A stretch of 39,189 nucleotides of DNA from IMG/VR virus record IMGVR_UViG_2703718862_000013. The stretch is one strand, 5' to 3'. Numbering within the stretch: position 1 is the stretch's first letter; each line of letters starts with the position of its first letter. Origin of the DNA: a virus. Its lineage: Duplodnaviria > Heunggongvirae > Uroviricota > Caudoviricetes. Below the pieces are notes generated by a model. The model was given only the letters and a program-made list of their open reading frames with translations, searched no databases and was not told where the DNA came from. This document shows positions 17,108 through 18,084 of the stretch, piece after piece. The position numbers were made by a program, and so were the translations under genes.

Positions 17108-17668
17108 TTACAGTTCCTCCGGCGGTTCGACCGCCGTTGTCGTGTTCCCCGGCAAATCAATATGTGCCTCAAACGGCGGCGTACCGGGCGGCTCCACAAA
17201 GGTTTCGTAATGACGCAGGAAGTCGTCCAGCGAGCTGATATCCGTCAGTGGCGCGATCATTTCCTCGCAGGAGAAATAAAGCGCATACATCACGGCCCCA
17301 CTGTTCGCCTGGGTTTCGGTGTAACCGTTGACCGCCTTTTCAAAGTAAAGCGGTGAGGTTTTTTCTGTTCTGAAGCCGTTAAGCACGGCAATCAGCCGGG
17401 CCACAATCTGATACAGTCCGGGACGGCTGGCCTCACGCCCGTTGAGCATGTCGCCGATGACGTAGAACACCCAGTGACTGACCAGGCGACCACGGGTACG
17501 GCCTTCACCGGCACCCAGCCAGGCAACGTAGATCGCCGGAGCGTTAATCAGCATGGTGCGCAGTACGCTGTCGCTCCAGTCGCCGGGATGCGTGTCAACA
17601 GACACAAGTTCATTCCCGAAATACTCACGGATACGGGCGATGTATGCCTGTTCGGTTTCCGTAATCAT
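17108..17668 (-). CDS. Tail-completion/neck protein (Mu gp37-like position)
   Basis: Synteny; start ATG overlaps TGA of extended gp36 frame. Confidence 0.6.
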   Translation of the reverse strand: MITETEQAYIARIREYFGNELVSVDTHPGDWSDSVLRTMLINAPAIYVAWLGAGEGRTRGRLVSHWVFYVIGDMLNGREASRPGLYQIVARLIAVLNGFRTEKTSPLYFEKAVNGYTETQANSGAVMYALYFSCEEMIAPLTDISSLDDFLRHYETFVEPPGTPPFEAHIDLPGNTTTAVEPPEEL

Positions 17669-18084
17669 ATGAAGCCCTTCTGGTTGCGCCCGAATACCGC
17701 CGCATCAGACTGAACCTGTGGTAAATCCCCGGATTCAGGGGCCGCACCGTTCGTATCCACACCGACCGGCACATTGCCGTTCATGACATCTTTCAGCTAG
17801 GCCAGCGCTTCGCGGTAACGGTCACGCGCCTGATCGGAGGCTCTCTGATCGCACAGGTAATAAAAGGCAATCGCGCAACAGTGCTGAACAAGAACTGCCG
17901 GAATAACCTCCAGCGGCAGCGTGTAACGGGCGGACAGATAGCTGTCGATAAGGGCTGACGCATCTGTCAGCGCCCGGTTCAGCTTGCGCGTGTCCGGCTC
18001 ATCCGAACGGGGCACTGCCAGTAACGGCCTGAGCAAATCCTCGCGGTAACGCGCCCGCATATCGGTTTCAGTGGCGTAATTCAT
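17665..18084 (-). pseudogene. gp36/J-like (DUF1320-like) gene interrupted by in-frame TAG at 17797-17799
   Basis: 95-aa ORF stops at TAG; same frame stays open 43 more codons (LKDVMNGNVPVGVDT...) and ends in an ATGA overlap with the next gene. Confidence 0.55.

Follow-up and report, generated by a model that had tools for sequence, protein, structure and literature searches.

Does the TAG codon that closes a 95-codon reading frame in the late operon of a Mu-like prophage mark the true end of a gene, or does it interrupt a gene that was once longer? The window, by which we mean the whole stretch of 39,189 nucleotides analysed here, is an Sp18-type Mu-like prophage of Shiga-toxin-producing Escherichia coli (STEC), and the frame in question is the homologue of gene J of phage Mu, whose product is gp36. 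An earlier note on this DNA had suggested that the ancestral protein was about 139 amino acids long and that the TAG is a nonsense change, possibly from TGG. It had listed four scenarios, namely an amber mutation, a defective prophage, a suppressor-dependent phage and a sequencing error. Of these, our results single out a true amber mutation, one that leaves this copy of the prophage defective. We give a probability of roughly 0.87 to the reading that codon 96 of the sole adaptor gene was changed from TGG to TAG by deamination and that the truncated product is non-functional. By descent the gene is a member of the adaptor family, and in this copy it is a pseudogene.

The interrupted reading frame and the prophage that carries it

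The whole gp36 homologue is found at 17665..18084 on the minus strand and consists of 139 sense codons and a TGA, with the amber codon standing at codon 96. Its ATG (18084..18082) lies within an ATGA overlap with the stop codon of the upstream gene. The translated ORF (17797..18084, from the sequence and its translation) comprises 95 amino acids, which make up most of the alpha-helical domain of the adaptor. After these 95 sense codons the frame meets the TAG at 17799..17797 and then stays open for 43 more codons (LKDVMNGNVPVGVDTNGAAPESGDLPQVQSDAAVFGRNQKGFI). The untranslated codons and their TGA occupy 17665..17796 and cover the rest of the last helix together with the C-terminal arm (C-arm). 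The restored frame ends with the TGA at 17667..17665, overlapping the ATG of the next gene at 17668..17666 in a second ATGA (17668..17665). The ATGA coupling to the next gene had been described in the earlier note, and this junction as well as every other coordinate given there for the frame was confirmed in the sequence. In the annotation of strain STEC2018-607 by the NCBI annotation pipeline PGAP, the gene (JFX52_RS14250) carries the label 'gp436 family protein, pseudo, internal stop'.

If the TAG is counted as a true stop, 128 nt (17669..17796) are left uncovered, whereas the other junctions near gp36 in the operon are 4-nt overlaps, direct abutments or gaps of 8-43 nt, so the contrast with tight junctions that had been drawn before holds. 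An open stretch of 43 codons has a chance probability of about 0.18 given the base composition of the window, and the open frame by itself says little. The extension is more than chance because it is homologous to the Mu gene J product, as described below.

The upstream gene (18081..18506, minus strand), whose stop overlaps the gp36 ATG, is gp35-like, HI1506-related and has a FluMu_N domain. It holds a perfect (GAAGCC)13 repeat at 18147-18224 that encodes a (Glu-Ala)n tract. The number of GAAGCC copies is 13 in the window, seven in the STEC2018-607 record and eight in prophage Sp18 of E. coli O157:H7 Sakai (Sakai Sp18), and these differing counts indicate either a variable-number repeat or a tract that is hard to assemble.

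A prophage almost identical to the window is present in STEC2018-607, a strain from human stool in Zurich (NZ_CP075697.1, record positions 2,933,579 to 2,972,731). It is inserted in bcsA, the gene for the cellulose synthase catalytic subunit, which is split into two pseudogene fragments, and the lysogen is therefore probably cellulose-negative. The window differs from this record in a flipped tail-fibre segment, in the copy number of the hexanucleotide repeat and in two SNPs, and thus comes from another assembly or a sibling isolate. The SNPs at 38536 (A/G) and 38540 (T/A) are the only base differences outside the repeat and the invertible segment. Both sit in an AT-rich spacer, probably the early operator/promoter region, from which the repressor-like and Ner-like genes diverge.

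The late genes are encoded on the minus strand in the order known from Mu: portal, F, G, protease I, major head T, gp35-like, gp36, gp37, DUF2635, sheath and tube. The lengths of the other essential genes agree with Sakai Sp18 to within a few codons, and so does the tail fibre when the segment is oriented as in the window. The TAG in gp36 is the sole internal stop among the 55 annotated CDS of the prophage, and the essential genes other than the gp36 homologue all look intact. This includes the portal gene (22714..24303, minus strand, 1,590 bp), which PGAP annotates as a DUF935 protein and which has the same length as the gene annotated as portal protein in Sakai Sp18. Its product is the predicted docking partner of the missing C-arm.

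A second pseudogene is annotated by PGAP at 1130-1508 on the plus strand ('hypothetical protein, frameshifted; incomplete'). It lies in the accessory region adjoining com/mom, where Sakai Sp18 has ECs_4996, and has no morphogenetic role. The gene at 24303-25967 (minus strand, 1,665 bp) is called a hypothetical protein by PGAP and a DNA packaging protein in Sakai Sp18, and it likely encodes the large terminase subunit. No other gene among the 55 annotated CDS ends in TAG; 29 end in TGA and 25 in TAA.

The invertible tail-fibre region, which is G-segment-like, spans 5237-6671 and contains two imperfect inverted repeats (about 5237-5397 and 6508-6671), and the invertase gene (4614..5174, minus strand) lies beside it. 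In the orientation of the window a tail-fibre ORF of 303 amino acids (6285..7196, minus strand) is intact, as in Sakai. The segment has the opposite orientation in NZ_CP075697.1, where PGAP annotates only a partial 'phage tail protein'. The opposite orientations suggest that the invertase is active in the strain.

The adaptor family, its conserved tryptophan and the reality of the TAG allele

With the tryptophan restored, the 139 amino acid protein matches the Phage_Mu_Gp36/DUF1320 family (Pfam: PF07030) with 121.3 bits at a cut-off of 24.7, and the match of residues 3-125 spans profile positions 1-123 of 124. The 'head-tail adaptor' family PHROG 195 matches the restored protein as well (E 3.7e-57). 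NCBIfam gave no match for any of the four proteins searched, although PGAP names the gene 'gp436 family'. The structures of the Mu gene J product (PDB: 9KHX/9KNU) align with the restored protein from end to end, residues 1-139 to residues 1-141 of 9KHX (E 1.3e-33). To the 109-residue crystal construct of Mu gpJ (PDB: 5YDN) the query aligns at residues 1-106. The 43 downstream codons alone match residues 98-141 of Mu gpJ, which are its C-terminal 44, with 55% identity (E 3e-12).

The gene is also positioned between the major head and gp35 genes and gp37, as in the late operon of Mu. In the cryo-EM structure of Mu, gp36 is the adaptor, and its 12 copies have the portal (gp29) on one side and the hexameric tail terminator gp37 on the other. 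The C-arm of gp36 enters the portal clip, where it builds a four-stranded beta-sheet (PMC11915804). Mu has no separate stopper protein, and the adaptor is also proposed to retain the DNA (PMC11915804). A dodecameric ring on the portal clip is known for Mu only. Of the former description as a 'gp36/J-like head gene', the gp36/J identity stands on the Pfam, PHROG and structural matches, while the sense of a head-shell protein does not, since the product is a neck adaptor.

Besides the end-to-end homology of its product to the restored protein (E 1e-33), Mu gene J shares with the window gene the gene order from major head T to the sheath, the Trp at the mutated position and the conserved C-arm. 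The difference is that the ORF of the window is cut at codon 96, so that only the N-terminal two thirds can be made.

Relatives with the intact 139 amino acid protein and TGG at codon 96 are found in Sakai Sp18 (ECs_4976), DETEC-S792 and JNEC-KY203, which bears out both the proposed ancestral length and the proposed change from TGG to TAG. The gp436 family protein of JNEC-KY203 (WP_001104956.1) is identical to the window protein with Trp restored, residue for residue. Both ECs_4976 and WP_001104956.1 belong to prophages of the same type as the window, but these have the TGG and are intact. Sp18, with its TGG, is predicted to be functional and its DNA is efficiently packaged (PMC2669165).

We surveyed both alleles in 5,426 complete E. 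coli genomes by megablast with 33-nt queries, in which each 28-nt seed was forced across the codon. The TAG 33-mer was found in one genome only, that of STEC2018-607, and the TGG 33-mer in 217 places in 190 genomes. Contigs with the intact protein sequence (WP_001104956.1) number at least 1,000, and the amber allele is therefore rare by comparison.

A conservation check of the tryptophan had been proposed together with the earlier reading. We aligned 120 database sequences, mostly from Salmonella and 62-68% identical, and Mu gpJ. Trp occupies the position of codon 96 in all 121 homologues, Mu gpJ included. Homologues that stop at the same position, with no similarity to the downstream codons, had been named as the observation that would speak against a truncation. 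None of the 121 ends at codon 96, every full-length member runs on through the conserved C-terminus, and the downstream codons match Mu gpJ. The C-terminal motif D-L-P-Q-x-Q...V-F-G-R-N-Q-K-G-F-I is nearly invariant in the alignment.

An allele found in just one of 5,426 complete genomes could be a sequencing or assembly error. The changed base lies exactly in a Dcm motif (CCWGG), and systematic nanopore consensus errors are documented at CCAGG/CCTGG (PMC6591954). Against this, independent assemblies yield 29 contigs with exactly the 95 amino acid product, among them the NCBI records EFG3212446.1 and HFS1980610.1. We read 24 of the 29 contigs, which are Logan assemblies from independent sequencing runs. 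Of three TAG loci compared with the window, two agree with it at 100% identity over 3.4-6.3 kb. The third, from SRR10190151 (L023), has the same TAG on a different haplotype. Over 3.4 kb its identity is 91.3% with the window and 95.5% with Sakai, and there are seven synonymous differences in the first 95 codons. The TAG is also shared by the window and the RefSeq record despite their differences in segment orientation, repeat number and two SNPs. Finally, differences at Dcm sites are not in excess. Compared with JNEC-KY203, the closest TGG-bearing relative, the change in codon 96 is the only Dcm-type transition among 454 substitutions over 24.8 kb, and 78 CCWGG sites are intact in the window. 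Thus the TAG allele is real: it is present on 29 contigs and on two haplotypes, and the window has no general problem at Dcm sites. A sequencing error is practically excluded. Before a change at a Dcm motif is written off as a nanopore artefact, it should be compared with short-read data obtained independently.

Origin of the amber codon and its consequence for the virion

The amber codon (17797..17799, minus strand, changed base 17798), which stands for the ancestral TGG of Trp96, overlaps a former Dcm site on the plus strand (17797..17801) that reads CCAGG in the relatives and CTAGG here. The G-to-A change from TGG to TAG on the coding strand is a C-to-T change on the plus strand at the inner, methylated C of the ancestral site. 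Changes from C to T at the methylated C of a Dcm site are the textbook hotspot of 5-methylcytosine deamination, and activity of the Dcm methyltransferase in the host is assumed, as is general for E. coli. The position of the mutated base, at the inner C of an opposite-strand Dcm site, makes a spontaneous deamination of 5-methylcytosine to thymine the most likely cause. It would have happened in the silent prophage, whose late genes are not under selection. The late genes are silent in the lysogen, and therefore the mutation would be neutral for the host and would be inherited clonally.

Coulondre et al. reportedly found in 1978 that Dcm-type sites gave amber hotspots in lacI. As at those hotspots, a change of the inner C of CCAGG to T creates a TAG in the window and appears to be recurrent; the difference is that the methylated C of the window lies on the non-coding strand, so that TGG and not CAG is changed to TAG. 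The TAG occurs on the window haplotype and in L023, whose flanking DNA differs by about 9%, and to judge from the two sequences this is most simply explained by independent recurrence at the hotspot. Upstream of the mutated base, L023 differs from the window at 11 and 14 nt, and downstream of it at 34 nt; the alternative for the two haplotypes is a gene-conversion tract of less than about 45 bp. With recurrence at the hotspot, the locus would illustrate Dcm sites as recurrent sources of amber mutations in resident prophages.

Translation of the mutated gene would end after 95 residues, and the product would lack the end of the last helix and all of the C-arm. In Mu it is the C-arm that passes into the portal clip and holds the dodecameric adaptor ring in place. 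A low-confidence AlphaFold2 model (28-sequence alignment, pLDDT 48.5) has a helix at residues 84-101, and the 95 amino acid product is predicted to stop inside this last helix. As the model is poor, it is chiefly the alignment with Mu gpJ that puts residue 96 into the last helix. By analogy with Mu, an adaptor that has no C-arm should not anchor on the portal, and heads would then be neither completed nor joined to tails. An induced copy would transpose, package its DNA and lyse the cell, and would release DNA-filled heads and free tails but not infectious virions. Most likely this copy gives few or no infectious particles. The gp36 homologue is single-copy in the STEC2018-607 genome, so there is no sibling prophage able to complement it.

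Amber mutants of Mu gene J were reportedly described by Grundy and Howe in 1985 (Virology 143:485), with full heads and free tails that are not joined as the expected phenotype. An open-access literature search found no text on the phenotype of Mu J amber mutants. Those classical mutants have an amber in the same gene as the window prophage; they were selected in the laboratory, are conditional and were grown on suppressor hosts, whereas the mutation described here is natural and sits in a resident prophage. Amber mutation of Mu gene J is a type of event known since classical Mu genetics, and this lesion is already flagged in RefSeq. It is an ordinary knockout mutation, and our analysis adds to the public annotation in small ways only: the lesion probably arose at a Dcm hotspot, it probably occurred a second time independently, and a sequencing artefact is excluded. 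This copy of the prophage should count as defective in virion completion, although its other essential genes look intact. This is relevant for predicting which STEC prophages can still spread, and matters little beyond correct annotation.

The next gene, at 17108..17668 on the minus strand, encodes the homologue of gp37, the Mu tail terminator (DUF1834; Phage_Mu_Gp37, Pfam: PF08873), and its ATG overlaps the ancestral gp36 TGA. It has its own Shine-Dalgarno-like AAGGG 6 nt 5' of the ATG. The 129-nt stretch that follows the TAG contains 43 G and 30 C. Given this ribosome-binding site of its own and an untranslated stretch that is rich in G and not in C, gp37 is probably still translated. Rho-dependent polarity on gp37 was considered and judged unlikely, as the stretch is not C-rich and G-poor.

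The allele might be leaky, with read-through or reinitiation giving a reduced but non-zero yield of phage, so that it could persist and spread. In E. coli, termination is relatively weak where C follows the UAG, and some read-through product may therefore be made. There is an in-frame ATG at codon 101, five codons past the TAG, from which a C-terminal piece of 39 amino acids could be made, and the allele is present in about 29 assemblies and two backgrounds. Moreover, 12 copies of the adaptor suffice per virion (PMC11915804). On the other side, clonal inheritance of a silent prophage explains the persistence equally well and the mutational hotspot explains the recurrence. The ATG at codon 101 has no Shine-Dalgarno sequence ahead of it, and, judged from the Mu structure, a C-arm made as a peptide of its own would be unable to link the helical domain with the portal. 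We regard such a hypomorphic allele as unlikely.

It is very unlikely that the TAG on two backgrounds reflects selection for the uncoupling of heads and tails in addition to the mutational hotspot. If it did, the uncoupling could for example be a step to domestication, in which induced cells release either contractile tails on their own, as tailocin-like killing particles, or DNA-filled heads that have no tail, and low-level UAG read-through could maintain a trickle of infectious phage. The measurements favour this selection no more than a neutral hotspot mutation in a silent prophage.

Suppression and a tRNA-like gene between F and G

Were the TAG decoded by a suppressor tRNA of the phage or of the host, or through programmed read-through, the full-length adaptor would be made, and two features of the prophage are in line with this. 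A 'tRNA-OTHER' gene is annotated by PGAP in the same prophage, and TAG terminates just one of the 55 annotated genes. However, ARAGORN found no tRNA in the window, and the annotated tRNA-like element has neither a 7-nt anticodon loop nor a CUA, so an amber suppressor (CUA) tRNA is missing from the window by both inspections. The element is equally present in prophages that bear the TGG. The in-frame TAG is absent from the 217 other copies and the 121 homologues, and it is therefore not a conserved recoding site. Natural isolates of E. coli seldom carry amber suppressors. The scenario of a suppressor-dependent phage, as raised in the earlier note, is thus unsupported and very improbable, and the TAG is best read as the amber mutation set out above.

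The tRNA-like gene itself lies at about 21317-21405 on the plus strand, antisense to the late operon, and fills the 125-nt gap between F and G exactly, from the F stop to the G ribosome-binding site. A sigma-70-like promoter (TTGCCT-17-TAAAAT) precedes it at 21281-21309 on the plus strand. It was detected neither by ARAGORN on the window nor by Rfam at gathering thresholds, and the Rfam tRNA model gives 30.0 bits in permissive mode only. An 8-bp acceptor stem, the D arm and the T arm are conserved. In place of the anticodon arm there is a hypervariable hairpin, which is wholly different between variants and contains no CUA. The hairpin has a tetraloop (UCAG, UCCG, UUCG or UCAA), a loop of 9-10 nt or, in Edwardsiella, a 7-nt loop on an 8-bp stem. 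After comparison of the variants, the candidate that the tRNA-like gene acts as an amber suppressor was rejected, as there is no anticodon loop or CUA.

Among eight distinct sequences of the tRNA-like element, one of them from Edwardsiella, four compensatory pairs were found in the acceptor and T stems. In the alignment 93.8% of the cells are paired, compared with 40-53% in slid controls. Relatives are found at the loci L005 (Sakai Sp18), L006 (14157-14241), L007-L011, L013 (3994-4088) and L014 (4001-4079). Some relatives are found in other, non-Mu islands of E. coli, one beside tRNA-Tyr and one in an integrase-containing island at tRNA-Phe. A survey across species, in which the gpG protein was searched against genome contigs, covered two loci. 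BLAST of the element against isolated phage genomes gave no match, and a literature search found no paper describing the gene. A role as a tRNA mimic, a decoy or a processing signal is possible. We consider this conserved tRNA-like gene the more interesting item of the window, compared with the amber mutation.
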